In this document: positions 25,498-44,871 of the stretch, one piece after another
Position numbering within the stretch: the stretch's first letter is position 1
How the letters are laid out: every line of letters begins with the position of its first letter
DNA from: Centroscyllium fabricii
Taxonomy: Eukaryota
DNA: 64,000 nt
Assembly (NCBI GenBank): GCA_051313645.2
Contig: JBNRSN020000004.1
Span: 260,090,001 to 260,154,000, forward strand
Direction: 5' to 3'
Program-made: the position numbers and the translations under genes
The notes under the pieces: generated by a model
The model's database searches: none
What the model was told of the DNA's origin: nothing
Seen by the model: the letters and a program-made list of their open reading frames with translations, nothing else

Positions 25498-28400
25498 TGT
25501 AGCGTAGTCGCTAACTCAATTAAAAGGTGACTCATAAGTACCGAAATACAAGGCTTTTAATTGATAAAGAATGGAGTTAGTCTCCTCACAAGTTCACATA
25601 CAGGAAAGAAGGAGCTGGGCCAGACCACACCTTATATCAGTACCTCCACCTGGGGGAGGAGTCGGGGGTGTGGCTGACCTGGCTCCCAGAAGCATCTACA
25701 CAATGCATCTATACAATGGCATGCTGTACAATGGTAACCATATAAGGGTTACCACATTCACCCCTTCTTAAAAACTTTGAGTCCGGGGGGGGTGAATGTA
25801 CGGAACAGTTCATAATCAGTCTCTCCGGCGGTCGCGTTTGTCTTGCGGACCGCCGGGGTTCCGGTGTTGGTGGTGATGCCTCCATGGTAGAATAGCCCGC
25901 CTCCGTCGGTGCTGTAACTTCTGGACGTGGTGGGTTCTGCTGGGCCTCGTCCTCTGGTGCATCGGCGGGGAAACTCGGGGCCCACCTTGTGTCTGGTGGT
26001 AGGTCGACCTGCTGGCCAGCAGGAGGCGCTGTGGCGATGTTGCCGCCCGGGGCCAGGTCCCTGATCGACACGGTGTCCTCACGGCCGTCTGTGAACTGCA
26101 CGAAGGCATAGTGAGGTTTGGCGTGTAGGAGCTGTACCTTGTCCACCAGGGGGTCCGTCTTGTGGCACCGAACGTGCCGCTTAAGGAAAACCGGCCCCGG
26201 AGTCGTCAGCCATGGTGGGAGCGCCGTCCCCGAAGTTGACTTCCTGTTGAAGGAAAAAACAAGATCGTGCGGGGTGGCGTTAGTAGCAGTACATAATAAT
26301 GACCTGATAGAGTGCAGCGCGTCTGGGAGGACTGCCTGCCAATGGGACACTGAAAGGCCCCTGGACTTGAGAGCCAGGGTGACCGCCTTCCAAATGATCC
26401 CATTCTCCCTTTCTACCTGGCCGTTCCCCCGGGGGTTATAACTGGTCGTCCTGCTCGTCGCAACCCCTTTCTGGAGCAGAAACTGGCGCAGTTCATCGCT
26501 CATGAACGATGACCCCCGGTCGCTATGGATGTAGCTGGGGAGACCGAAGATGGCGAACAGCGTGGTGAAGTGTTTTATCACCGTTGCGCTCGTCATATCT
26601 GGGCAGGGGAAGGCAAAGGGGAAGCGGGAGAACTCATCCACTACCGTGAGGAAGTATGAGTTGCGGTCGGTGGAGGGGAGGGGGCCTTTGAAGTCTACGC
26701 TGAGGCGTTCAAAGGGGTGGGTGGCCTTAATGAGGTGCGCCGTGTCTGGCCGGAAAAAGTGGGGTTTGCACTCGGCGCAGACAGGGCACTCTCGGGTCAT
26801 AGCCTTGATCTCCGTGATGGAGTAGGGGAGGCTACGGGATTTGACAAAATGGGCTAATCTGGTGACACCCGGGTGGCAGAGGCGGTCGTGGAGGTCCTTC
26901 AGCCGGTCTAGCTGGGCACTGGCGCACGTTCCCCTGGACAGCGCGTCCGGGGGTTCATTGAGTTTACCTGGTCGGTAAAGAATGTCGTACTCGTAAGTCG
27001 AGAGTTCGATCCACCACCGCATGATCTTATCATTCTTGATTTTACCCCGTAGTTTATTATTAAACATAAACGCTACCGACCGTTGGTCGGTGAGCAGGGT
27101 AAAACGCTTACTGGCCAGGTGATGATGCCAGTAGCGCACGGCCTCCACGATGGCCTGGGCCTCCTTTTCCACTGCGGAGTGGCGAGTTTCGGGTCCCTGT
27201 AAGGTGCGGGAGAAAAATGCTACGGTCCTGCCTGCCTGATTCAGGGTGGCAGCAAGAGCAAAGTCCGAAGCGTCACTCTCCACCTGGAAAGGGATGGATT
27301 CATCAACAGCGAGCATGGTCGCCTTGATAATATCTTCTTTTATCTTTTCGAATGCCGTTTCAGCTTCTATAGAAAGGGGGAAGACGGCAGCCTTGAGGAG
27401 TGGTCTAGCCTTGTCTGCGAACTGCGGGACCCATTGTGCGTAGTAGGAGAAAAATCCTAGACATCTCCTCAAGGCTTTGGGGTTGTGAGGTAAGGGCAGT
27501 TCTAGCAGGGGTCGAATACCATGTGGGTCGGGGCCGAGGAGCCCGTTCTCCACCACGTATCCGAGGATGGCGAGCCGGGTTGTATTAAAGACACACTTGT
27601 CTTTGTTATACGTAAGGTCCAGCTTAGCCGCCGTGTCGAGGAATTTGGCCAGATTGGCATCGTGGTCCTGCAGGTCGTGGCCGCAGATGGTCACGTTGTC
27701 CAGGTAGGAAAAGTGGCCAGCAAGTCATTCTGGTCAACCATACGGTCCATCTCCCATTGGAACACGGACACTCCGTTGGTCACGCCAAAGGGGACCCGGA
27801 GGAAGTGGTAGATCCGACCGTTCGCCTCAAAGGCGGTGTAGGGGCGGTCGGCTTTCCGAATCGGGAGCTGGTGATACGCCGATTTAAGGTTGATTGTGGA
27901 GAACACCTTGTACTGGGCGATCTGATTGACCAGTTCCGAGATGCGGGGAAGGGGGTAGGCGTCGAGCCCGGTGTAGCGGTTGATAGTCTGGCTATAGTCG
28001 ATCACTAGCCGTTGTTTCTCACCAGACTTCACCACTACAACTTGGGCGCGCCAGGGGCTGGTGCTGGCTTCAATAATCCCCTCCTTCAGCATCCGCCCGA
28101 CCTCCGACCTGATAAACGCTCGGTCCCCCTCACTTTACCGCCGACTCTTGGTGGCGATTGGTTTGCACTTTGGGTCGAGGTTGGCGAACAGTGAGGGGGG
28201 GTCGATTCTCAGGGTGGAGAGGCCGCAGGCCGGGGTCCGCTTCGGGGGGAGATTGTCCCGGCTACTGAGGGTGAGTGGGGGTAAAGTCCCACCGAACTCC
28301 ATGGTCACGCTCCTGAAGTGGCACTGGAAATCCAAGCTTAGTAAGGCTGGGGCACACAACTTTTTGAGGGTATAAAATTTAAAATTGCGGTACACGCGTC

Positions 28401-30325
28401 CCTGGATGGTGAGCGTGACGGAGCAGTAGCCGGTGACGTCCGCGGTGTGGGACTGTGAAGCTAGGGACACTTGGTAGTTGGTGGGCAGGACCTGCAGCCC
28501 GAAACGCCGCACTGTATCAGGGTGAATGAAGCTCTCGGTACTGCCCGTGTCAAGGAGGCAGTCGACGGTATGGTTATTAATCATAATAGGTCTTATGGAA
28601 TTAGACAGGTGATGGGGCTTGCTTTGGCTAACTGTGGTTGTAGCAGCCCCTGCTGATGGGGACTGTGCACAAAATGGCGCCGCCCTTGGTTCGCACATGG
28701 AGGGGCCCTGGATACAAAATGGCGCCGCCCTTGGCTCACACATGGAGGGGCCCTGGATACAAAATGGCGCCGCTCCTGGCTCGCACATGGGGGGGCCCTG
28801 GATACAAGATGGCGCAGCCCCTGGTCCGCAGTTGGTGGGGCCCCGTATACAAGATGGCGCCGTCCCTGGTTCGCACATGGAGGGGCCCTGGGCGCAAGAT
28901 GGCGTCTTCCGCGGCTCGCACCTGGAGAGGCCTAGGTTGCGGGGTAGCGTTACTGCGGGGCCCTGATGCGTTGGCGGTGCCCGTGATTCGCACGCAGCGA
29001 ACCGCGGTGAACGCGCTGGTGGCGCCCGTGGTTCGCACGCAGCTAACCGCGGTGAACGCGCTGTCGGCGCCCGTGGTTCGCACGCAGCTAACCGCGGTGG
29101 ACGCGCTGGCGGTGCCCGTGATTCGCACGCAGCCGGCCGCGTTGTAAGATCGCGTTTGGCCGGTCGCCGCTGCATCGAGGTGGGGGAAGGGGGCGCTTGC
29201 CGTCGCTGAATAGCACTGCAAATGCAGCTTACCTGGTGGTGGTTGCTCTCACAGGCTGCACTGTTGTACCTTTTTGGTGCTGCAGCTGGAGTGGATCTGC
29301 AGGCCTTGGCGAAGTGTCCCTTCTTGGAGCATTTTTCGCAGGTCGCTGTCTTGGCTGGGCATTTTGCTCTGGGGTGCAATCCTTGGCCGCAGAAATAGCA
29401 GTGTTTGTGCTTAGTGTCCGTGGTGGCCGTCGCGGCCATCGTGGGGCTCTCAATCCGTGATGCCTGTTGTGGCGTGGCCCATATGTTGTAGACTTGATGG
29501 CTGGTACCACCGTACGTCTGCGATTTATTACGGGCCCCTTCCACCGATTTGGCTAACGTGGTTGCCTCCTCAAGGGTCAGAATGTCCTTTTCCAGTAGCC
29601 TCTGACGGGCTACTGCACATCTTAGTCCTGAGACGTAGGCGTCCCGGAGGAGGAGGTTTTCCTCCTGTGCCACAGTCAATCCACCCTTGCAGCCACAGGC
29701 CCGTATCATGCCCCGGAGCGCTTTCTCAAACTCGTCGTTTGACTCACCGGGTAGTTGAGATCGGGTCGCTAGTAGGTGGTGGGCGTAGACAGAGTGGGCC
29801 GGGCGCTCATAGTACTTCTTGAGGGTCATCACAGTTTCCTCGTAGGTTGTAAGGTCCTCGACGAGGGTGAAAACCCTGCTTGAAATCCTGGATAGCAGGA
29901 CTTGGAGTTTGTCCTCGTCCGTGGTAGCCTTGGCGGCTGCCATATAGGCCTTTAGTAATCCGAACCAGTGCTTGAAGGTAGCTGGTGCCGCGGCATCCTG
30001 GGGGCTAATGTCCAGCTCCCTAGGCTTTACCGTGCTGCTCTCCATTTTAAATTTATCAATTAAAATTGTAGCGTAGTCGCTAACTCAATTAAAAGGCGAC
30101 TCGTAAGTACCGAAATACAAGGCTTTTAATTGATAAAGAATGGAGCTAGACTCCTCACAAGTTCACATACAGAAATGAAGGAGCTGGGCCAGACCACACC
30201 TTATATTAGTACCTCCACCTGGGGGAGGAGTCGGGGGTGTGGCTGACCTGGCTCCCAGCAGCAACTACACAATGCATCTATACAATGGCATGCTGTACAA
30301 TGGTAACCATATAAGGGTTACCACA
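25498..30325 (-). mobile_element. Full-length Gypsy element C inserted in integrase of D
   Basis: 259-bp LTRs 25498-25756 and 30067-30325 (~9 differences), 5-bp TSD CTCGT, PPT. Confidence 0.97.
25709..30045 (-). pseudogene. gag-pol: gag-pol of C with one in-frame stop (28135-28137) and one frameshift (~27705)
   Basis: ORFs 28135-30045 and 27691-28092 share a frame; ATFP(Y)LDN broken by a 1-nt deletion; 25709-27694 carries RT end, RH and IN. Confidence 0.92.
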
Positions 30326-33300
30326 CTCGTCGAAGACCGTGAGGAAATACGAGTTACGGTCAGTGGAGGGGAGGGGACCTTTGAAGTCCACACTCAGGCG
30401 TTCGAAGGGGCGGGTGGCCTTGATGATGTGCGCCCTGTCTGGACTGTAAAATTGGGGTTTGCATTCAGTGCAGGCAGGGCGCCATTTGGTCATAGCCTTG
30501 ATCTCCGAGATGGAGTAGCGGAGTCTACGAGACTTCACAAAGTGGGCGAGTCTGGTGACACCCGGGTGGCGGAGGCGATCGTGGAGGTCCTGCAGCCGGT
30601 CAATATGGGCACTGGCGCACGTTATCATGGACAGGGTGACCGGGGGCTAGTTGAGCTCACCTGGCCGGTAAAGAATGTCGCACTCGTAAGTCGAGAGCTC
30701 GATCTGCCACCGAAGGATGTTATCATTCTTAATTTGACTCCGCTGTTTAGTGTTAAACATAAACGCCACCGACCGTTGGTCGGTGAGCAGGGTAAATCTC
30801 TTACTGGCCAGGTAGTGGCGCCAGTAGTGCACTGCCTCCACAATAGCCTGGGCTTCCTTTTCCACTGCGGAGTGGCGAATTTCAGGTCCTTGTAGGGTCA
30901 GGGAGAAGAACACTATGGGCCTGCCCGCTGGGTTGAGGGTGGCAGTGAGGGCAAAGTCTGATGCGTCGCTTTCCACCTGGAAGGGGATGGACTCATCAAC
31001 GGCGTGCATGGTCGCCTTGATGATGTCTTCCTTGATCTGGGCGAATGCCGTTTGGGCTTCTGCCGGGACTGGGAAGACATTGGCCTTGAGGAGAGGTCTG
31101 GCCTTATCCGCATACTGGGGAACCCATTGTGCGTAATAGGAGATAAACCCCAGGCATCCCTTCAGGGCTTTGAGATTGTGGGGTAAGGGCTGCTCCTGCA
31201 GGGGACGCATACGTTGGGGATCGGGGCCGAGGACCCCGTTTTCCACCACGTAGCTGAGGATGGCGAGCCGGTCCGTACTAAAGATGCACTTGTCCTTATT
31301 ATACGTCAGGTTCAGCCGTTTGGCCGAGTGAAGGAATTTGGCGAGGTTGGCATCGTGGTCCTGCTGGTCATGGCCGCAGATGGTCACGTTGTCCACGTTG
31401 GGGAAAGAGGCCTGCAACTCGTTATTGGTCATCCATCCAGTCCATCTCCCTTTGGAAGACCGACACTCCGTTGGTCACGCCGAAGGGGACTCGGAGGAAG
31501 TGGTAGAGACGGCCGTTCGCCTCGAGGGCGGTGTACCGGCGGTCAGAATTCCGGATGGGAGCTGGTGATACGCCGACTTGAGGTCAATTGTGGAGAAGAC
31601 CTTGTACTGGGCGATCTGGTTTACCATATCCGAGATGCGGGGGAGTGGGTAGGCATCGAGCCCGGTGTAGCGGTTAATCATCTGGCTGTCATCTATGACC
31701 ATTCGCAGTTTTTCGCCTGTCTTAACCACCATGACCTGGGCCCTCCAGGGGTTGGTGCTGGCCTCAGTGATCCCTTCCTTTAGCAGGCGCTCGACCTCCG
31801 ACCTGATAAACGCCCGGTCCCCTGCTCTGTACCGCCGACTTTTGATTGCAATGGCTTTGCACTTGTGGTTGAGGTTGGTGAACAGCGAGGGGGGGTCGAC
31901 TTTCAGTGTTGTAAGGAGCGTGCGTCGTATGTTTTATTTACGACTTGGGGTCCGTTACTGCCTTGCACTAGCAGTCCGCTAGGCCTCGCGCAATAACCTC
32001 CTCCCCCGCGAGCGGTTCGAATCGCTCACCCTTACGGTTCTAGACGCTGGACTTAGGTGCAGGAAAAGAGAGAGAGACGAGATGGATACCGATTGGACTC
32101 AGACTTGGACTCGAATAAAAGTTGCAAAGTTGGATGATTTTATTACACCACAAGATATATGTACAGCAGTTAGGTTGTATTTCATAGAACCAACAGAGTA
32201 TGATACACCAACAGTTGTTTCCCAAATATATATATATGAACATACACAAGTAACTTATAGGATGGGGAACGCACGGCACATCGTAAATCGGGGCAATGAC
32301 TCTATAAATACACCCAAATAAACCACCCTTCCCTCTTATTGCCTAGCTATGTCCAGGTGTGTAGGATCGGGGCACATGCTCACCACTCGGTCAAACTCGG
32401 GGTCTGCTATTCGTCTCTTCGGCTGCAGCGTCGGTCGTCACGTGGCTGTGGAAGATTCGGGAGCCCACTTGTTGTCTTCTCCCTCTGGGCGGTGGCTGCT
32501 TCTGCTCGGGCTGGTCCCGGACGGGTTCCTCGAGGCTGCTCTACCTCCTCGCACCAACCGCACCGTCTCCCTGGCTGAACCGGACCCTGGGGTATGCCGA
32601 TCCTGCCCTCTCAAGCCGAACTGTAACGGGCTGCTAGCCTACTTGCTTTTCCACTCTTCCGACGCCAGCTTATTCGCCGTGTTCGACAAGATGCTTCACT
32701 AATGGGGCCCAACAACCAACTACCTCACCAGCAATGGTTTTCCGATGCGATACAGCCCTGACCCAACTCTGCTGTCCTGCCAGAGCCTGCACCCTGCTTG
32801 CCCTGCACCCAGATAGCTGAACTGGAGTCTACGAAAAGGAGAGCCCACCCAAAGTCACTGCTAAAGCTCAAGAAGTTCTTTCAGAGACCTTACCGCTTCA
32901 AGAGGTCGCCTCCACGAGTCAAGAGAGAGAAATCCAAACCCCCCTCCTCCAGGGAGTCCGAGATGAAGAGTTTCCAAGAGAGAGAGACCTCACCGCTTCA
33001 GGAGGTCGCCTCCACGAGTCCTAAGTCATAAGAGAGATTTTTCCAAGAGAGCCCTCTCCAGAGAGCCCACAGAAGAAGAGAGAGAGAGCGAGAGATCGAA
33101 TAGTAGAATGTCCTGCCAGTTATACCCCAAATGTTGAATGCCTAATGTCTTTCCAATTATGTCTGGTATTGTCTTTAAGAAACGGTTACTGCATTCTTTT
33201 GTCCAGCCAAACCTGCTGGTAATGCTTTGATGGCAGCCCTAACCTCTCCTGTATAGAGCTCCATTGTTTTCAAAGGGTGCTAATCGTTTTAATGCTTGCT

Positions 33301-34536
33301 TGCTGTACAATTTCTGTACCTGGCTAAACGGGCCAGTTAGTTCATATTTTCAGTATAATTGGGTGCTTATTTAACTGGGTGCATTTCTTTGTTGGGCTAA
33401 GCGGTTCTAAGGGCTGGTTATTTATTTCCAATCGCACACTGGCTTATGGCGCCTCTATGTCTGGGCGTTTTCGCGGGCTTTCTAGAATTCGGTTTTAGTT
33501 TCGATTTTGCTCTGGCCGTTATGTCATGTGGTCCGGTGGCCATCTTGTGAGGCCCCTTTTCTCTGATCGAGCCGCAGCTCGTCTTTTTCTCTGCCACTGT
33601 TCAATAAAATATGCTTACTCCATCCATCTGTTTCTGGTCTTTGTGAATCCGTTTTTAACCTTGGAATATTGCGGCCTTACAGTCCCTCCTGTTGATTAAC
33701 ATAACCCCGCTTAGCGAATCAATTAATAAAGGTTGAGCAAGATTCCTGATTCTCCACACCTCAACTCTCCTGGTTACCTAAGTTAACTGTTGCCCCCTGA
33801 CACATGCGGTTCCCATTCCCTTCGGTCAACCTCGCATTGCCTTCACCCTGGGCAACGTATATTTACACAACCATTCCTTACACCTCCTGGTTCCTTCCAC
33901 GTCTGCCAGGCCGATGCCTTCGTCTCCACCTGTTCATATCGTTTATTATTTGAAAGAGACATCACACAACCAACCGAAAAATTCACAACACACACATATA
34001 TATCCCCTCATCAATCCCACCATGTGTCCCAAAGTCTATACAGCGTTCTGGCGGTCTTCCGCAGCCACCACCATCGGCTCGCTGGGATCTTCCTATCCCT
34101 CAACGAAAATCAGTGCTTTCGCCGATGATAGCGCTGGTTCTGGCGATCTTGATCCGAGGCACAGCAGGCAAGTCTCCGACGCGCTGGGATGCTCCATTGG
34201 GTCCGTTCCCAGCCGTCCTGGGCATCTGCTCCTTACTCCCCAGTGTGGCCCCGACAGGCCAGTCCATCTCTGATGACCGCAAGCGTCATCAGAATCCCCG
34301 CCTCTCTGGGTTCTGTAATTAAACAAAGGGGTTGCCGGCCTCCCAAGAGCACCTGGCTGTGGTGAGATGTGCACACCTCCTGGACAGATCCCATATTACC
34401 TAAACACTCCCCTTCACCTTTATACTAAATGTAACACCATTAACAAAAATTCAAAACTTAATTCGGGCTATTCCCTTGACACTACCAAAACTTATTTCTA
34501 ACTATGATACAGTGCCGCCTCTCCCGGGCGGCCTAC

Positions 34537-37500
34537 CTATCCCCTGTCAGGGTCGCAGCGGGCCGCTCCCCGTGGCGGTGCATTGCTGACCCTTCCCTTT
34601 GATTCCCCGCAGCCTGTTGCTGCTTTTGATTCTCCGCAGCCTGGTGCTGCTTGTCGGGGGTAGATAATTATCCTTTTGCGGGGGCTTTTTCCCATTGTAC
34701 TGTTCCTGTACCTGAGGGCATAGGACGGTCCTGGCCAAGCTTTCCTGGGCTGGGGTGCCCTTCCCGATCGACGGAGGGTGCTTTTAGGTACTGCCCCCTG
34801 GGCCGACGAACTGAGGACCGAGCCCGGTTGTGCTGCAGCCTGCAACTCCCTCACAGCTGCCAGCCCCAACCTCTCTTCCTCCAGCTTCGCTTCCCTGGGA
34901 CCGAGAGCCCCCTGGGCCGACGACCTGAGGACCGGGCCAGGCCGTGCTACAGCCTGTGACCCCGTCACATTTGTCAGCATCGACGTTCCCTCCTCTCGCC
35001 TCTTCGACGAACTGAAGGCCGGGCCGGATCGTGCTGCAGCCTGTGACTCCTTCACAGCTGCCAGCACCGACCCTCCCTCCTTCAGCTTCGCTTCCCCGGG
35101 ACTGGGATCTTTTGCGGCTTCTGACCTCACCTCACCTATCTCCTCAGGTGGTGAGTCTCCGCCCGCTATCCCTACCTCTTCGGCATTCGAGTCGAGAACG
35201 GAACCCCCGTCCTCCGACCCCTCCTCCTCCCCTGTGATTGACTCTAGCACTGGGTCGCGTAGGTCAATCAGGTCCAACCCTTGGTCGGGTTGGCCAATCG
35301 GGTCCAACACCTGGTCGTGTTGGTCCGGCTCCTCCCCATCTGAATCCCACACAGCACGAGAGACCCTCCTCTCCTCCATCGGGGCCTCTCCTTTCACGCA
35401 GGCTACTTTACCTGCCTGCGCGACCTGTGGTCCTGCACTTGGCTGGGCGTTCCTACTCACAGGGCCTGCCCCTGTGGTCGACCCCTGCGTGCCCGACTTA
35501 TACCTCTTGCACTGGTTTATATGAAACCACTTTGTGCGCCGGGGCACCTTCACCGCATAAACCATGGGGCTTGCCTTATCTACAATGCTGTAGGGCCCCA
35601 TGTACAGTGGCTCTAAACTCCCTACCCGGGCATAGTTCCTCACAATGACCAGGTCTCCCACTTCCCATTCTTGCGTTCTTCGGGGCTCCAGCAACAGCTT
35701 GTTCCCCTGATGCTGTCTGCCCATGTTCCCTGCTGCCTGCTCGTGTACTTGCTTTAGGTGCTCGAACAGATTTTGGGCAAACCTGTCCTTCTTTACCTCC
35801 TCGAGCTGTCCTTCCGTGAGCACCGGGGCTAGTACATGAGTGGGGGTCCGCATGGCCCTTCCAGTCATTAGCTCGTGTGGGGAATACCCCGTACTTTTCG
35901 ACTGGCTGGCCCTGATCCCCATGATGATTAAAGGCAGGATCTCCGCCCATTTCTGGGGCGAGCCCATCGCCTCTTTCCTCAACCGTTCCTTAAGGGTTCG
36001 GTTCATGCGTTCCACAATCCCTGACGACTGGGGGTTGTGCGCTACGTGCCATTTCCCTTCTATGCCTAAGAGCATGAGGGTGTTCTGCATGACTTGGCCG
36101 GTGAAGTGGCTCCCCTGGTCAGACTCCACAAAACGGGGAAGTCCCCACCATGAGAACACCTCCCGGACCAAGATCCTGGCAGTACCTAAGACCGTAGCCG
36201 TCCTGCAGGGGAAAGCTTCCACCCACTTGGAGAACACCTCCACCAGGACGAGACAATATTTATAGCCTCCCTGGGCGGTGGGTAGGGGCCCTATATAGTC
36301 GACTTGTATCGACTGCCATGGTCCCTCCACCCTCCTGACGTGCCCCATCTGCACTTTCCTCCTTTGGGGGTCTGGGTTGTTCACAGCGCACACCAGGCAG
36401 CTGGCGCAGAACTCGCGGGCATCTTTCCTGAGTCCCGGCCACCACCCTGCCTGCTCCACCCGCTGCCATGTAACCTCTGGCCCGGGGTGCCCTGCTCCTG
36501 GACCCTCGTGGGCCAATTGGAGAAATTCCCTCCTGTGCTGCTGCGGCACAACCCACTGTTCCTCCCTGAACAACATTCCTTCCTTAACGGAGAGGGTCGC
36601 CCTATTGTATGGGCCCTCTACCTGCTTGTCCTCGCCAATAGCTTTGAGGACAGCTTTTAAAACGGGATCCTGGTTTTGGACCGTTTTGAGATCCAAAGGC
36701 AGGGGTACCCTGAGGCGGTTCCCCTCCTTATCCCGGATCGCTGCCACGGGTCCGGACCCATAGGGGTCCCAGAAAGTGCCTTCCCGAGCACCCTCCTTGG
36801 CCAGCGCATCCGCATTCTGATTGCCTCCCCCACGTGGTTCCGTGGCAGAGTGAGCCTTCACCTTGTGGATGAAGAACTCCCCTTCTTCCCCTACTGCCGC
36901 TAGGATCTTCTCCAACAAGGGCTTTACCGTTAATGGCCGCCCGTCCGCGGAAGTGTACCCGCGACGTGACCATATGGCCAGATACTCCGTGCACGAGTTG
37001 CATGTAAACATACTATCTGAGCAAATTGTGTACGGGGTTGGGAAGGTCTCGGGGTGGGTTACCACGTACGCCACCGCCGACAGCTCGGTCTGCTGCGCGC
37101 TCATGGTGCGGGGAAGCTTAACCGCCAAGGCAATGTCTGCCGTAGGGTCAAAAATCCCGCAGCCCGTGAGTCGTTCGCCAGCCACCACCGTGCTGGAACC
37201 ATCAACATAGATCTCGCGGCCCATGGGATGTATCCCGGCTTGCAGACCTATGTTCTCCTCCCATACCCCCTCCGCGGAACACCGATGGGTCGTTCCGGGG
37301 TACATCAAATTTGCTGCGAGCGTAGGCTCGCACAAACCCTCCACCTTTAAATCCATTTGTGACAAGAGAAGAGTCCAGCGCGCAATCCTCGCGCTGCTCA
37401 CGGTCCCATCCTTTATCCTCCCATCCAGGAGCATCCTGGTGGGTGTGTGGTGGGTGAGGAGAGTAATGGGAGAGGTTCCCGTGAAGATCAGTGATCTTTT

Positions 37501-39163
37501 CACGGCCCAATGCGTGGCTAAGAGATGCCGTTCGCAGTTGGAGAACCCCCTCTCTACCTCCGTGAGTACCCTTGAGGAATACACCACCGGTCGCAGCTTG
37601 CCGTGCCGCTCTTGGAGCAGCACCGCGCTCAAGCTGTCCTCGCCGGCTGCTACCTCCAGGGAAAACTCCTTCCCCCCCTCTATGGCCCCCAGCGCTGGCG
37701 CGGTTTGCAAGTCCCTCTTCAACTTTTCAAACGCCGCCTGGCAGCCCTCATCCCATGACCACCCAACTCCCTTATGTAAGAGTCGGAGCAGCGGAGCTGC
37801 TGTGGCTGCATAGTCCTCAATGAAGTCTCTGCAATACCCGGTCAGTCCCAAAAAGGACCTCACACCCTTTACGGTGGTCGGGATCGGTAGCTCCTGTACC
37901 GACTCCCTCCTGGCCTTATCTATGGCCCTTTCCCCCGCGCGGATGGTCAAACCCAGAAATTTTACTTCTGTCTGGCCAATCCGTGCCTTCTTCGGGTTTA
38001 TTTTAAAACCCTTCCTAGCCAGTAATTCCAGCAGCTCGCCTAGCAGTGGCAAGTGCTCATCCCTCATGTCCGTGAACAAAAGTAAGTCGTCCACGTACTG
38101 CACTGTTTGATTGGGCTGGCTAAACTCCTTTAAACTCCCTGCCATACACTGGTGGAAGATACTGGGGCTGTTGTGGAAGCCTTGCGGCAAACAATTCCAC
38201 GTGTACTGCTGCCCTTTAAACGTAAAGGCAAACTTGTACTGATCCTCCCTCCGCAGCGGGATGGACCAAAACCCGTTGGAAATATCCAACACCGTAAACA
38301 CCGTGGCGGAAGCGGGAATACTCCCGATCAGGTCGGCAACTGCTGCCACCGTGGGTGCGCAGGCGGGGATGTTACTGTTGAGGACCCGATAATCCACCGT
38401 GGCTCTCCATGAGTTGTCTGGCTTCCGTACGGGCCACAACGGAGAGTTCACATGGGTGGCTATCGGCCTCAACATGCCCTGCCGCACCAGTGAAGACATC
38501 GCTGTCTCCAGATCGGACTCCGCTTCCTTGGGGAAGTTATACTGTTTCTGGGGTCGGGACATGGGATCCCCCTGTACGCTAACCTCAAACCATAAGACCC
38601 TCCCACAATCGTGCTTGTGGGTCGCAAAGGCATTTATATTCCAGGTTACGGCCGCCTGCATGTCGGCCGGAACCCCCTTGGACAAACTTTCGAGGTCGTA
38701 ACCTCCGGACGGCTTCATGGTACATAGGGTCCCCTTCTCTTCTTCCTCCCCTATGACCACAACTTCACCTCTTCCACTTTCGGCTGCCCATAAACAGTGG
38801 TTCCTTAGGTCGATCATGATCCCGTGTGCTCCCAGAAAATCTGCTCCTACTATTCCTCTGCCACCTCCTTCTTCCCATTTCAGCAGGATGCACTCCCAAG
38901 TGGTGTGGAGCGCTCCTAACTGAACGGAGAGTGGCCTAGAGCGCGCGTCCCCCTGTTCCTTGCCCGTAAACCCTGCTAATGCAAAAGGGACTCCGGTGGA
39001 CATTGGGAGAATTAAACGGCTTCTCTGTATGGATCACGGTGCATGAGGCCCCCGTATCCAACAGATAATTCCCCTCCTGTCTCTCCACCTCCATTTCCAC
39101 CAGAGGTCTCCTCCATGCATCATAACGGAGCGGACACAGGTAAATGGGCAGCACGGGCCTTAG
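34537..39163 (-). CDS. pol: Pro-Pol of F: protease, RT, tether, RNase H, integrase and long C-terminal extension; one frameshift at ~39005-39030
   Basis: LLDTGA; LDISNGFW, LPQGFHNSP, YVDD; degenerate first RH; IYVDGSS..QQTEL..SDS..KAH..NADALA; HHCC; D-D-E; GPY. Confidence 0.92.
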
Positions 39164-40414
39164 TCATTGGGTTTCCACGTAAGGGGCTGCGGTGCCTGCG
39201 GAACCGGTGGCCACCGCCGCCTTCCCCTGGGAAGCCATATACAACTTCATGGCCCCCAGCGTGGACTCTATCGTTTCAGGACTTAAAGTCGCCCCGGCAC
39301 CTCCTGTGGGAGTGGGTGCTCGGATTGGGGCTACCTTCCCCTGGGAAGTCATATAAAACTTCATGGCTCCCAGCATGGACTCAATCGTTTCGGGACTTAG
39401 AGTAGCGCCGGCACCTCCTGTGGGAGTGGGTGCTCGGGCTGGGGCTGCGGGAGCTCTTTCCTTGACCTCCCTCCACGGGGCTCTACAGTCTCTGCGCCAG
39501 TGGCCTGCCTTCCCGCATCTATGACATGTAGACTGCCCCGGGTTGCCCCCCTCCTGATACCACTCTCTCTGCGCTGGGGCGTCTGCGTTAGTCGCATACA
39601 CCTTCCCCTTATCGCAGTGCATCACCGAACTTCTCGTATTTTTGTACCCAACCGTGAGTCGGTTGAGAACCGTCTCCTCTGTGGTTTGAGCATCAGTGGG
39701 GTCAAACCACACCTTAGCCTGCTCTCTAACGGCGGGTAGGCTGTTGGCAACGATACACCGGAGCCAATGGGCTCTCCCGGCATCGCGCAAAACAGCCTGC
39801 GCAGGTACATCGGGGCAGCTGCGCTGATACACAGGCCACAGCCTCCCGGCGAAAACCCGTGGGGGTTCTCCCTCCATCTGCACGGTCCTACCCAGCCTTA
39901 CAAACGGACCTTCATCGTCCATCCCTAATATTTCTAAGACCTCGTCCCGCAGGTCGTCATAGCCCTTCTCCCCCCTTTTGCTCTCGTCGGAGAGACACTG
40001 AAGGATAGAGCTATCTAGGGAGAAAAGCAACATCCTGGCTTGCTCCCCTTCGTCGCAGCCGTTTATCGCTGCGGCCTGTTCGACCTCTCTAAAATGCAGG
40101 GACGGATCGCCTGCTGCGGACAGCTTCCTGAAATGCTCTATCATGCTCCTTATCTGTTGCGAGCTATGGGGCACTATAACCTCATTCAGGATGGGTCCGG
40201 GGTCCCCAGCCGCGGTGTTGGGACCCCGCCTCGTCTCTCGAACCGGACACATGGGTGCCGGGTCTGGATCCCCCATTCTGGGAACCTTCGCTGCCACCTC
40301 CTCTCTGTCCCCTTTCTCCCATGCTTGCGTATAGTGGGGTGATCGCGCGGGGAGCGCGGGGGCTGGTGCCTCCGGCGCTCTCCTCGGCCTTTGCTTCGGG
40401 GGTTCCTTAACCAC
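39164..40414 (-). CDS. gag: Gag of F (capsid-like region, CCHC knuckle, 38-aa duplication)
   Basis: CHRCGKAGHWRRDC; RAPTPTGGAGATLSPETIES twice; position upstream of the protease. Confidence 0.85.
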   Translation of the reverse strand: MVKEPPKQRPRRAPEAPAPALPARSPHYTQAWEKGDREEVAAKVPRMGDPDPAPMCPVRETRRGPNTAAGDPGPILNEVIVPHSSQQIRSMIEHFRKLSAAGDPSLHFREVEQAAAINGCDEGEQARMLLFSLDSSILQCLSDESKRGEKGYDDLRDEVLEILGMDDEGPFVRLGRTVQMEGEPPRVFAGRLWPVYQRSCPDVPAQAVLRDAGRAHWLRCIVANSLPAVREQAKVWFDPTDAQTTEETVLNRLTVGYKNTRSSVMHCDKGKVYATNADAPAQREWYQEGGNPGQSTCHRCGKAGHWRRDCRAPWREVKERAPAAPARAPTPTGGAGATLSPETIESMLGAMKFYMTSQGKVAPIRAPTPTGGAGATLSPETIESTLGAMKLYMASQGKAAVATGSAGTAAPYVETQ

Positions 40415-41083
40415 CTATACCTCACCCACCGATGGGTCGATGAGGCACACCAGACCATTTGACTTGCTCAGGGCCTCCCTGAGGTCCTGAATCTCCTTCA
40501 AACAAGCGCCATGATCGGCGTCCTCATATTTAGTCTCGAGGGACATTTTATACGCTGCCCTCATCCCCAGCAAATTCTCGTCCTGTGCCTTCAATTGGCC
40601 ACTTAGGCGGACGCACCGTTCCCTGAGCTTCCCTTCACTCGACATGGCCTCTACTACCTGTCTCTCTAAGAGCTCAACCCTGGCCTCATGGCGGCTGGTC
40701 TTCACCTGGCGCTCTCTATTTAGAGTCTCGAGTGCGGTGATTAACTGCTGCCCCCCTGAGACCTTTTCCTCTACTTCGAGGACTAACCCCTTTATCTGCG
40801 CGGTCTGCACCGCAATCACCTGGTCTGAAAGTTGGACCTGCCTTTTATAGCACATGAGCCATACTGCTTTTTCCACTGCTTTCTTATGCCCATTGCTACC
40901 CGTCCAACGGATAGCTGCATCCAGTGGACGCTTTTCTGCCAACAGGTCCCCAATCCACTGCTTTGTCAAATTTACTTTACTGAACACATAATCAGCAATC
41001 CTTTCATCCATTAAATTCCTTTTATTCAAGGCTGAGTCCAATATATCCTTTTCCTGCTGCCAACGTCCTGCCGTGGTCGCCAT
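40415..41083 (-). CDS. Coiled-coil ORF in frame with gag, separated by a single TAG
   Basis: 222 aa with heptad-like E/K/L/Q-rich central region; next codon after TAG opens the gag frame. Confidence 0.75.
   Translation of the reverse strand: MATTAGRWQQEKDILDSALNKRNLMDERIADYVFSKVNLTKQWIGDLLAEKRPLDAAIRWTGSNGHKKAVEKAVWLMCYKRQVQLSDQVIAVQTAQIKGLVLEVEEKVSGGQQLITALETLNRERQVKTSRHEARVELLERQVVEAMSSEGKLRERCVRLSGQLKAQDENLLGMRAAYKMSLETKYEDADHGACLKEIQDLREALSKSNGLVCLIDPSVGEV
41065..41082 (-). promoter_or_regulatory. Primer-binding site of F, probably tRNA-Arg(UCG)
   Basis: TGGCGACCACGGCAGGAC 3 nt inside the 5' LTR; matches my recollection of vertebrate tRNA-Arg(UCG) 3' ends. Confidence 0.75.
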
Positions 41084-44000
41084 TCTGTAAGGAGCGTGCG
41101 CCGTATGTTTTATTTACGACTTGCGGTCCGTTACTGCCTTGCACTAGCAGTCCGCTAGGCCTCGCGCAATAACCTCCTCCCCCGCGAGCGGTTCGAATCG
41201 CTCACCCTTACGGTTCTAGACGCTGGACTTAGGTGCAGGAAAAGAGAGAGAGACGAGATGGATACCGATTGGACTCAGACTTGGACTCGAATAAAAGTTG
41301 CAAAGTTGGATGATTTTATTACACCACAAGATATATGTACAGCAGTTAGGTTGTATTTCATAGAACCAACACAGTATGATACACCAACAGTTGTTTCCCA
41401 AATATATATATATGAACATACACAAGTAACTTATAGGATGGGGAACGCACGGCACATCGTAAATCGGGGCAATGACTCTATAAATACACCCAAATAAACC
41501 ACCCTTCCCTCTTATTGCCTAGCTATGTCCAGGTGTGTAGGATCGGTGCACATGCTCACCACTCGGTCAAACTCGGGGTCTGCTATTCGTCTCTTCGGCT
41601 GCAGCGTCAGTCGTCACATGGCTGTGGAAGATTCGGGAGCCCACTTGTTGTCTTCTCCCTCTGGGCGGTGGCTGCTTCTGCTCGGGCTGGTCCCGGACGG
41701 GTTCCTCGAGGCTGCTCTACCTCCTCGCACCAACCGCACCGTCTCCCTGGCTGAACCGGACCCTGGGGTATGCCGATCCTGCCCTCTCAAGCCGAACTGT
41801 AACGGGCTGCTAGCCTACTTGCTTTTCCACTCTTCCGACGCCAGCTTATTCGCCGTGTTCGACAAGATGCTTCACTAATGGGGCCCAACAACCAACTACC
41901 TCACCAGCAATGGTTTTCCGATGCGATACAGCCCTGACCCAACTCTGCTGTCCTGCCAGAGCCTGCACCCTGCTTGCCCTGCACCCAGATAGCTGAACTG
42001 GAGTCTACGAAAAGGAGAGCCCACCCAAAGTCACTGCTAAAGCTCAAGAAGTTCTTTCAGAGACCTTACCGCTTCAAGAGGTCGCCTCCACGAGTCAAGA
42101 GAGAGAAATCCAAACCCCCCTCCTCCAGGGAGTCCGAGATGAAGAGTTTCCAAGAGAGAGAGACCTCACCGCTTCAGGAGGTCGCCTCCATGAGTCCTAA
42201 GTCATAAGAGAGATTTTTCCAAGAGAGCCCTCTCCAGAGAGCCCACAGAAGAAGAGAGAGAGAGCGAGAGATCGAATAGTAGAATGTCCTGCCAGTTATA
42301 CCCCAAATGTTGAATGCCTAATGTCTTTCCAATTATGTCTGGTATTGTCTTTAAGAAACGGTTACTGCATTCTTTTGTCCAGCCAAACCTGCTGGTAATG
42401 CTTTGATGGCGGCCCTAACCTCTCCTGTATAGAGCTCCATTGTTTTCAAAGGGTGCTAATCGTTTTAATGCTTGCTTGCTGTACAATTTCTGTACCTGGC
42501 TAAACGGGCCAGTTAGTTCATATTTTCAGTATAATTGGGTGCTTATTTAACTGGGTGCATTTCTTTGTTGGGCTAAGCGGTTCTAAGGGCTGGTTATTTA
42601 TTTCCAATCGCACACTGGCTTATGGCGCCTCTATGTCTGGGCGTTTTCGCGGGCTTTCTAGAATTCGGTTTTAGTTTCGATTTTGCTCTGGCCGTTATGT
42701 CATGTGGTCCGGTGGCCATCTTGTGAGGCCCCTTTTCTCTGATCGAGCCGCAGCTCGTCTTTTTCTCTGCCACTGTTCAATAAAATATGCTTACTCCATC
42801 CATCTGTTTCTGGTCTTTGTGAATCCGTTTTTAACCTTGGAATATTGCGACCTTACAGTGTGGACAGGCCGCAAGTCGAGCGCCGCGTTAGGTCGGGACC
42901 GTCCCGGCTACTGACGGTGAGGGGGCCAGGGACCCACCGTATTCCATCGTCACGCTCTTCAGGTGACACTGGAAATCCAGTCCCAGTAATACTGGGGTGC
43001 ACATCTGCGGGAGAACGTACAGTTTAAAATTACGGTAAGTGCGGTCCCTGATGGTGAGCGTGACGCTGCAGTAGCTGGAGATGTCCGCCGTGTGGGACTT
43101 TGAGGCTAGGTAGTGTTGGTTTTGCATGGGCTGGGTCTGCAGTGCATAGCGCCGCACGGTGTCGGGATGAATGAAGCTCTCTGTGCTACCGGTGTCGAAC
43201 AGGCAGTTAGTGGCGTGCCCTTCAACCTTGATCCCCATCATGGAGTTGGATAGGGCATGCGGCCTGGCCTGATTGACTGTGGCTGAGGCCGATGTTGTGT
43301 TTGTGTGAGGGCCCTCCGCTAGCTGGCACCCCGTCTGGGGCGAGTGGCAAGATGGCCGCTCCGAAGATGGCGGCGCTAGCATTTCACATGTGTCTGGCCG
43401 TTGTTGCGGCAAAGATGGTGGCGCCCGTGATTCGCAAGCGGCAGACCGCTGAGGGTAAGATGACGGCGCCCGTGGTTCACACGCGGCTGACCGCTGTGGG
43501 CAAGATGGCGCGCCCGTGGTTTGCACGCCGATGGCCACTGTGGGCAAGATGGCGTCGCCTGTTTTTTGCACGCAGCTGACCGCTGTGGGCAAGATGGCGC
43601 CGCCCGTGGTTTGCACGCGGCTGACCGCTGTGTGGAGGATGGCGGTGCTGGTGGGTCGCACATATCCGGCCGCAGTTGCACTGACGATGGCGCCGCCTGT
43701 GCCGCGCGCGCGTCCGGCCGCCACCATGATTTTAAAAGTGATGGTGGTGCCCGCAATTTGCACCCAGCTGACCGCTGTTGGGTCGCGCTGCAGCACCGTA
43801 CCTGTGGCCACAGAGTGGCATCATTGGCTTCGCAGGCCGCGCTGTTGGGTCTTGAGGTCGGGCTGGACTTGCAAGCCTTCGCAAAATGTCCCTTCTTCCC
43901 GCACCTCGCGCAGGTCGCGTTCCTCGCAGGGTACAGCGCTCGCGGGTGTTTTGCCTGGCCGCAGAAGTAGCACTTGGGACCCGCTGGCGTCTTCGCAGCT

Positions 44001-44871
44001 GCCACTGCTGTCGTTGGGGGCTTCAGCCCGTGACTGCGGCGCCCAGAGGTTGGTGGGCCCGCGTGGGGGTCATTGTGCTTGTAAGCGTCCATATGCTTGA
44101 GCGCTCCGTCCACCGCATTAGACAGCGTGATAGCGGACTCGAGCGACAGAGTCTCTTGTTCTAGCAGCCGTTGTCGGGCCTGGCTGGACCTGAGCCCTGT
44201 TACATATTCATCGCGGACCAGGAGACTGGCTCCTTCCTCGGCCGTTGTTGCCTTGATGTCGCAGGCCCGTAGGAGGGCTTGGAGCGCTAATAAAAATTCT
44301 TCGTTTGACTCACCCAGCCATTGCCTCTGGTCGCCAATATGTGTCTGGCGTAAACCGAGTGGACTGGGTGCACATAGCAGTCCTTCAGCTTCTTGGCAGC
44401 TTCTTTATTGGTCTTGATGCCTCTGTTGAGGGAATATACCCGGCCGCTGATCCTGGATGCCAGTACTTGGAGTTTGTCCTCTTGCTGGTCGCCTTCATGG
44501 CCTTCATGTAGGCCTCGACACATCCAAACCAATATTCAAAATTGTTCGCCGCATCGGGCACCTGAGGGTTGATCTCGAGGTGGTCCGGTTTCACTGCGTT
44601 GCTCTCCATGTTTAAAATATAGTTAATAAAATTGATGTATCGTCAACTGAGACACAAAGACGAATAGCTACCTCAACTAAAGGCTTTTATTAACTATCGA
44701 ATGGAGCGTGTCTCAGCTGAGCTTGGGTTTGTACTCACCGGGGGATGGTAGGCAATTACCTATATACCTGGACTCAGGGGAGGAGTCAGAGGTGCGTCAG
44801 CTGAGTCAGGCTCCTGTATACCGATATCTACATATGTACAGTGGTACATTATGGTACCATTACAGTGGTAC

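Follow-up and report, generated by a model that had tools for sequence, protein, structure and literature searches.

An endogenous retrovirus family of the shark Centroscyllium fabricii, likely related to Ovex1 and SpeV, with an immunoglobulin-like gene or its remnant in the env slot

A stretch of 64,000 nucleotides from the shark Centroscyllium fabricii (the window; assembly GCA_051313645.2, contig JBNRSN020000004.1, positions 260,090,001 to 260,154,000) contains a provirus at 31910-42857 on the minus strand. In our judgement this provirus is probably a defective member of an abundant endogenous retrovirus (ERV) family, which likely belongs to the basal group related to Ovex1 and SpeV and likely spreads inside germ-line cells without an envelope. 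The group is known and poorly sampled; what stands out within it is an immunoglobulin (Ig)-like gene in the env slot, the later loss of that gene, and an apparent UGA-CUA read-through. All coordinates are window positions unless a contig is named, and published work is cited by identifier.

A defective copy of a high-copy family

The provirus has two long terminal repeats (LTRs) of 1,772 bp (3′ LTR, 31910-33681; 5′ LTR, 41086-42857; both on the minus strand, as are all internal features below). They have TG...CA ends, differ by 9 substitutions, 6 of them transitions (99.49% identity), and are flanked by target-site duplications of GTGT (31906-31909 and 42858-42861), which confirms the provirus delimited in a preliminary description made from the letters of the window. 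The 0.5% divergence of the LTRs would correspond to an insertion age of about 1 million years at the mammalian rate, and of about 12 million years at the ten-fold slower shark rate assumed in PMC4422223. The insertion site lies inside an older Gypsy element, whose protease it splits from its reverse transcriptase (RT).

Probing the 7.2-Gb genome with 601 bp gave 40 scored matches at 98%, and the 20 that were fetched are close siblings of the window copy. A second sample consisted of 40 of the first 42 primer-site matches on one contig, two near-duplicates being skipped. In a subfamily tree of the 34 loci with a full tether-RNase H stretch (6 loci were omitted as too short), 19 loci and the window copy fell in clade A (Shimodaira-Hasegawa-like approximate likelihood-ratio test, SH-aLRT, 100), 14 in B, and 1 between. 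Exact junctions of LTR and primer-binding site occur genome-wide 8,080 times in the A form and 1,258 times in the B form, with none for reversed controls; these are counts of junctions, not of full-length copies, and if all 8,080 were full-length they would make up about 1% of the genome. Four-bp duplications flank 13 of the 15 siblings with both ends located. The LTR pairs of A diverge by 0.2-1.8% (11 pairs), in keeping with the recently amplified element first described; those of B differ by about 1-2.4% (5 pairs), and B is therefore somewhat older. An integrase deletion at the same place in 6 of 40 loci (L054, L061, L065, L073, L085 and L088) marks what appears to be a non-autonomous sublineage amplified in trans.

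The window copy is defective and not itself functional. It alone carries a premature stop in gag (40415-40417), open in all 20 siblings, and a protease frameshift near 39008, absent from the same 20 and found as a minority state in contigs of two public runs; with these two lesions, full Gag or Pol cannot be made by this copy. Both may have been acquired after insertion or been complemented in trans. Six of the 20 siblings are open from the start codon through RNase H save for the stop at the gag-pol junction. A programmed frameshift in the protease was rejected, the shift being private to the window copy.

The preliminary description had also placed a separate coiled-coil open reading frame (ORF) ahead of gag. 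This ORF lies in the same frame as gag, and the closest named Gag, a skate (Rhinoraja) protein, matches the whole of it as one ORF, with 59% identity over 94%. Because all 20 siblings are open at the intervening stop, Gag is one frame of 639 codons (39167-41083), and the supposed preceding gene is its N-terminus. The coiled coil is followed by a capsid-like region, one CCHC knuckle and, at the end of gag, a 114-bp repeat (39220-39446) present in 1-3 units among siblings.

Gag is followed in frame by a stop codon (39164-39166), likely read through, which is UGA in all 20 close siblings and is followed by CUA in 19 of them. Sister-subfamily copies keep UGA-CU(A/G) in 14 of 15, although the preceding Gag residues differ, and overall UGA is kept in 34 of 35 siblings. 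Gag-Pol is likely produced by leaky read-through of this UGA without a stable downstream structure; against read-through stands the RNA 3′ of the UGA, which is no more stable than shuffles (z -1.1 to +0.3). The hexanucleotide is that of alphavirus type II UGA-CUA read-through (PMC13517186), whereas the retroviral contexts given in the available part of that source are UAG-GGA, UAG-GAU, UAG-GGC, UGA-AGA, UGA-CGA and UGA-AGU, without UGA-CUA among them.

Reverse transcription is likely primed by tRNA-Arg(UCG), to whose 3′ end the primer-binding site (41065-41082) is complementary. The site matches the 3′ end of a sequence present 81 times behind a tRNA T-arm; ARAGORN, run on four such tRNA-like loci, called one tRNA-Arg(TCG) and one of undetermined type, and made no call for two. 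Such tRNA-Arg(TCG)-like 3′ ends also stand in a tandem array with about 1.9-kb spacing (G000:C811:24567232-24732408). The Gag start codon lies 2 bases past the 5′ LTR and overlaps the primer-binding site (41081-41085); the first residues of the skate Gag are identical, so that R-U5 would contain the entire leader.

Pol and its phylogenetic placement

Pol opens with an aspartic protease (38790-39163, lower boundary approximate; LDTGAS near 39061), followed by RT (37759-38556; PF00078, E 1.5e-34), in which the retrovirus-type motifs of the preliminary description, LDISNGFW (38289), LPQGFHNSP (38190) and YVDD (38097), were found in place. Pfam domains then follow in the order tether (37357-37755, Pol residues 427-559; PF17919/PF17917), second RNase H (36787-37215, residues 607-749; PF00075, E 4.7e-18) and integrase (35500-36549), the last with an HHCC zinc finger, a D-D(35)E core and an SH3-like end with an MGPY motif. 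In the tether, a degenerate first RNase H, the acidic catalytic residues present in the alignment's five gypsy rows are missing; the second RNase H retains all four, D-E-D-D, so that the dual RNase H noted earlier holds. Behind the integrase, a low-complexity tail of about 310 residues leads to the pol stop (34537-35466); it varies among copies and carries 87/114-bp repeats (34804-35107).

As anchors for placement we used database proteins of SnRV, WEHV-1, an Ovex1 orthologue and lokiretroviruses (Loki). The SnRV anchor (P0061) matches the 10,688-nt record L152 at 99.4% and agrees with the SnRV rows in the supplement of PMC7947760; the Ovex1 orthologue was recognised by four motifs named in PMC2717909, and the Loki anchors by motifs in the PMC7947760 supplement. 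Among named Pol proteins, 'NYNRIN-like' models from frog and coelacanth come closest. In a quick RT tree of 69 rows the window copy joined the Ovex1 orthologue together with frog, coelacanth and turtle rows (SH-aLRT 87). In a four-domain tree of 33 rows the Ovex1-like set formed a polytomy between Loki+Gypsy (100/99) and SnRV+ERV-L+class I (93/99); this separation, together with the tether and active RNase H, sustains the earlier assignment to a basal retrovirus-related lineage rather than to single-RNase-H Gypsy elements. The approximately unbiased (AU) test did not reject an Ovex1-like group (p 0.38). The element also has the Ovex1/SpeV-type plan, with a coiled-coil Gag and gag-pro-pol in one frame interrupted by a putatively suppressible stop.

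Several points weigh against this placement. Neither the four-domain tree nor those of integrase and tether support the Ovex1-like group as a clade, the group was defined after the RT tree had been seen, and the trees hold no foamy virus, class II, ERV4 or Odin rows.

The element had been called lokiretrovirus-like, and an env-less lokiretrovirus or Odin-like element would share with it the dual RNase H, a coiled coil ahead of the capsid, comparable to the Loki 'smc' gene (PMC7947760), and the 'NGFW' motif, also found in Loki rows; tether and integrase moreover score higher against Loki than against SnRV. Such an identity is nevertheless very improbable, with the Loki rows forming a 100/100 clade that excludes the window copy and the AU test rejecting a union of the two (p-AU 2.3e-5). 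The RT has LPQG where Loki has CPFG or MPFG, and the protease-RT region is short, without the long Loki insert. Odin is the sister of Loki (PMC9040795), so an Odin affinity would have pulled the window copy to Loki. Membership of the SnRV clade (clade Huo) in the narrow sense, like that of the shark CmiERV lineage I, has a better claim and is still unlikely. RT motifs nearly identical to those of SnRV, the same Gag plan with an in-frame stop, and the SnRV-like ERVs known in elephant shark (PMC4422223) speak for it, and the limits of clade Huo, a broad grouping (PMC6001957), may be set so as to take in Ovex1-like elements. However, a sister position of the window copy and SnRV was rejected (p-AU 0.0018), the frog and coelacanth proteins are closer than SnRV both in RT (51-53% against 45% identity) and in integrase (43-47% against 36%), and the junction is UGA-CUA rather than the UAG-GGC of SnRV.

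Three other assignments were rejected. Metaviridae (Gypsy) do not fit the dual RNase H and an RT outside the Gypsy clades, and class I (gamma/epsilon) does not fit a Pol that fails to group with WEHV-1 and gamma-like proteins. The 4-bp duplication, single knuckle and MGPY motif differ from the 5-bp duplication and the lack of a zinc finger and GPY/F described for ERV3/ERV-L and ERV4 (PMC4299795). Foamy viruses have a Gag without a zinc knuckle and make Pol separately (PMC2717909, PMC8278194); here a CCHC knuckle and an in-frame gag-pol were found.

The env slot and its Ig-like gene

Between the pol stop and the 3′ LTR the window copy has 855 bp, and this gap measures about 850 bp in 17 of the 20 close siblings, is shorter in 1, truncated in 2 and longer in none. 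The preliminary description had taken it as free of env; functionally this is so, but the region is not blank. It holds a decayed, internally deleted remnant (33988-34369) of a gene that we call ORF3, in three blastn pieces 72-83% identical to codons 1-21, 56-123 and 153-169 of a sister-subfamily locus, comprising the signal peptide and parts of an Ig-like domain without the stalk and transmembrane part. Next to the LTR lies the polypurine tract (33682-33693, read in the sequence), and 28 of 40 family loci have the same motif at the LTR start; where the 3′ LTR begins, overlapping ORFs vary from copy to copy, and in the window copy they are closed.

Copies of subfamily B have a longer 3′ region with an ORF3 of about 320 residues, fully covered in 7 of 14, and copies of A cover 0-186 of these residues. 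Because A holds broken pieces of ORF3, it would have arisen from a B-like ancestor by deletion. The preliminary description had reckoned that env-bearing siblings would reduce this copy to a mere deletion; a deletion derivative it does appear to be, but of an Ig-like membrane gene and not of a recognisable env.

ORF3 has a hydrophobic N-terminus, an Ig-like segment (about residues 85-185), a Pro/Thr stalk, a transmembrane 19-mer at 271 and a short tail. We rejected a retroviral class I fusion Env, as none of four ORF3 copies has a furin site or CX6CC, there are only two hydrophobic segments, and no Pfam env family matches. The Ig pattern Cys...Trp...D-x-G-x-Y-x-C is present, Pfam Ig_3 matches three of four copies (E 0.013-0.16), the best structure-database match is JAM-A (E 0.008, weak), and the Atlas neighbours are adenovirus E3 CR1, UL10, BTLA and V-set proteins. 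These three kinds of match are weak and concordant in suggesting an Ig identity. Against it, all Ig matches fall below the Pfam cut-off and one of the four copies has none, the Atlas output itself flags its top family as probably wrong, and the AlphaFold models of Gag and ORF3 (predicted local distance difference test, pLDDT, 32 and 42) are too poor to use and gave no Foldseek match.

Judged by its pattern of substitutions, ORF3 has been kept under purifying selection in subfamily B: the ratio of nonsynonymous to synonymous change (dN/dS) over 8 copies amounts to 0.48 for the whole gene and 0.29 for the Ig part, compared with 0.24-0.29 for pol and 0.89-0.94 for shifted frames. Among the 125 best-scoring genomic ORF3 copies, 96 are stop-free. 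Weighing on the other side, the 8 copies are related and their pairs not independent, the 125 matches are biased to intact copies because they are the best-scoring ones, and only 3 of 8 unselected near-full copies have neither stop nor frameshift.

Two origins of ORF3 seem about equally plausible, each falling somewhat short of even odds. It may be an envelope native to the lineage that lost its fusion core and retained signal peptide, Ig-like surface part and membrane anchor. It occupies the env slot, an env is present in crocodilian ERVs related to Ovex1 (PMC4299795), and the gene model of a frog relative (P0007, residues 1187-1300) ends in a signal peptide and Ig domain fused to Pol directly after the integrase, a hint that genes beginning with an Ig domain lie behind pol elsewhere in the group. 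Yet the frog Ig segment does not align with ORF3, and no Pfam Ig domain is found in the env of SnRV or of L147 (MDSQ01000919.1), a metagenome record of a 9.1-kb near-complete basal retrovirus with a coiled-coil Gag, a UAG-GGA junction and a long env. Weak collinear matches of ORF3 to both ends of the L147 env (z 2.3 and 2.0) were not significant, being equalled by 20 and 26 of 500 shuffles with an hhalign probability below 3%; matches to the SnRV env (L152) were likewise weak. The other origin would be capture of a host Ig-superfamily mRNA that replaced env and has since diverged, for which the nectin-3 gene of CrocERV31 (PMC4299795) is a precedent. The order of signal peptide, Ig domain, Pro/Thr stalk, transmembrane segment and short tail is the one seen in adhesion molecules of hosts and in immune modulators of viruses, and JAM-A and the Atlas neighbours point the same way; the weakness of the JAM-A match tells against capture, as does the failure to find a host source gene in a genome search saturated by retroviral copies of 91-100% identity.

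No env-bearing member of the family occurs among about 90 copies read; these are about 90 of some 9,000, which leaves room for rare env-bearing members and to that extent counts against an env-less family. No mononegavirus F-like env is present in the window or in 60 family loci; a genome-wide PF00523 search matched nothing anywhere and is uninformative on F-like env. In 10 loci with TLV_coat and 20 longer stretches no family pol is linked to env, the sole family sequence being one LTR on the opposite strand, and in the Pol tree the env-bearing family reached through TLV_coat belongs to a different clade. Family DNA was likewise absent from all 8 loci examined out of the 31 carrying an L147-like env. 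Copying inside germ-line cells without an envelope is the likely mode of spread. On expression, no RNA record was listed as holding the sequence, which tells neither for nor against it.

Two further families, both env-bearing, share the genome. That with TLV_coat (for example L114 and L116; G000:C2:205982300-205992299 and G000:C689:122856000-122865999) has many copies with open frames of about 480 residues and is placed by the Pol tree at the base of class I. An older, degraded family (L153-L168) has an env like that of L147 (31 matches), with a cleavage-site region that looks Loki-type by eye, though its nearest Pol is not Loki. The window itself is a nest of LTR elements, with neighbouring Gypsy elements that carry 45-bp tandem repeats in gag (28135-30084 and 42858-44404).

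Comparison with known elements and meaning

A Gag with an N-terminal coiled coil and an in-frame gag-pol stop have been described for Ovex1 and SnRV (PMC2717909). With Ovex1, SpeV and CrocERV37-39 the shark family has in common the coiled-coil Gag, one-frame gag/pro-pol split by a stop, tether plus RNase H, and a degenerate GPY (PMC2717909, PMC4299795). Ovex1, however, is single-copy, LTR-less and enzyme-dead, without a zinc knuckle, with an amber stop and an 873-residue ORF3 (PMC2717909), whereas the shark family is young and numbers thousands of copies, with one knuckle, a UGA stop and a 320-residue Ig-like gene or its remnant; CrocERV37-39 have env (PMC4299795), which the shark family lacks. 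SnRV resembles it in RT motifs, a coiled-coil Gag with one CCHC and a read-through junction 30-35 residues before the protease DTG, but is not its sister and has a very long env, 3′ accessory ORFs and another stop context. Loki and Odin share the dual RNase H and a coiled-coil region ahead of the capsid, and Odin also lacks env (PMC7947760, PMC9040795); they form a separate clade with other RT motifs, and the shark family has neither the long protease-RT insert nor an F-like env. CrocERV31 too has an Ig-superfamily membrane gene that replaced env under purifying selection, and a deletion derivative that lost it, but it is an ERV4 with three Ig domains about 76% identical to the host gene and six copies (PMC4299795), compared with one divergent Ig-like domain and hundreds of copies or more here. 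It is the only precedent that we found in the literature for an Ig gene in the env slot. We found no published account of this family, nor one of an Ovex1-type ERV with an Ig gene, though Repbase, subscription papers or supplements may hold one.

The history that we favour would run as follows. An ancestor would have lost a fusion-competent envelope, after which the env slot held a type I membrane protein of about 320 residues with one Ig-like domain, as in subfamily B; there its likely role was at the cell surface, whether in adhesion, in receptor blocking or in immune modulation. Most of ORF3 would then have been deleted in subfamily A, which expanded about six-fold more, with intracellular retrotransposition as the likely mode of spread.

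A bolder version of this history, which we hold to be rather unlikely, would make the Ovex1-related group the earliest-branching true retroviruses after the Loki split. The family would then record two steps of env loss in one genome: first a surface protein with an Ig domain, dead for fusion, that occupied the env slot, was preserved by selection over hundreds to a thousand insertions in the germ line and may be shared by frog relatives, and then its deletion followed by a burst of 8,000 copies; it would also use read-through of the alphavirus type at UGA-CUA.

Many RT loci, mostly of clade III, have been reported in cartilaginous fish (bioRxiv 2023.10.17.562709), and the 3 chondrichthyan genomes screened in PMC7947760 yielded no Loki; the present family does not extend the range of lokiretroviruses to these animals. 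It provides young, enzyme-intact representatives of a basal group near the root of the retroviruses, for which the record otherwise consists mostly of a dead bird gene, a fragment from tuatara and old copies in crocodilians. Its subfamilies with and without the membrane-protein gene stand side by side in one genome, and would offer a direct test of whether loss of a 3′ surface gene makes a genomic super-spreader.

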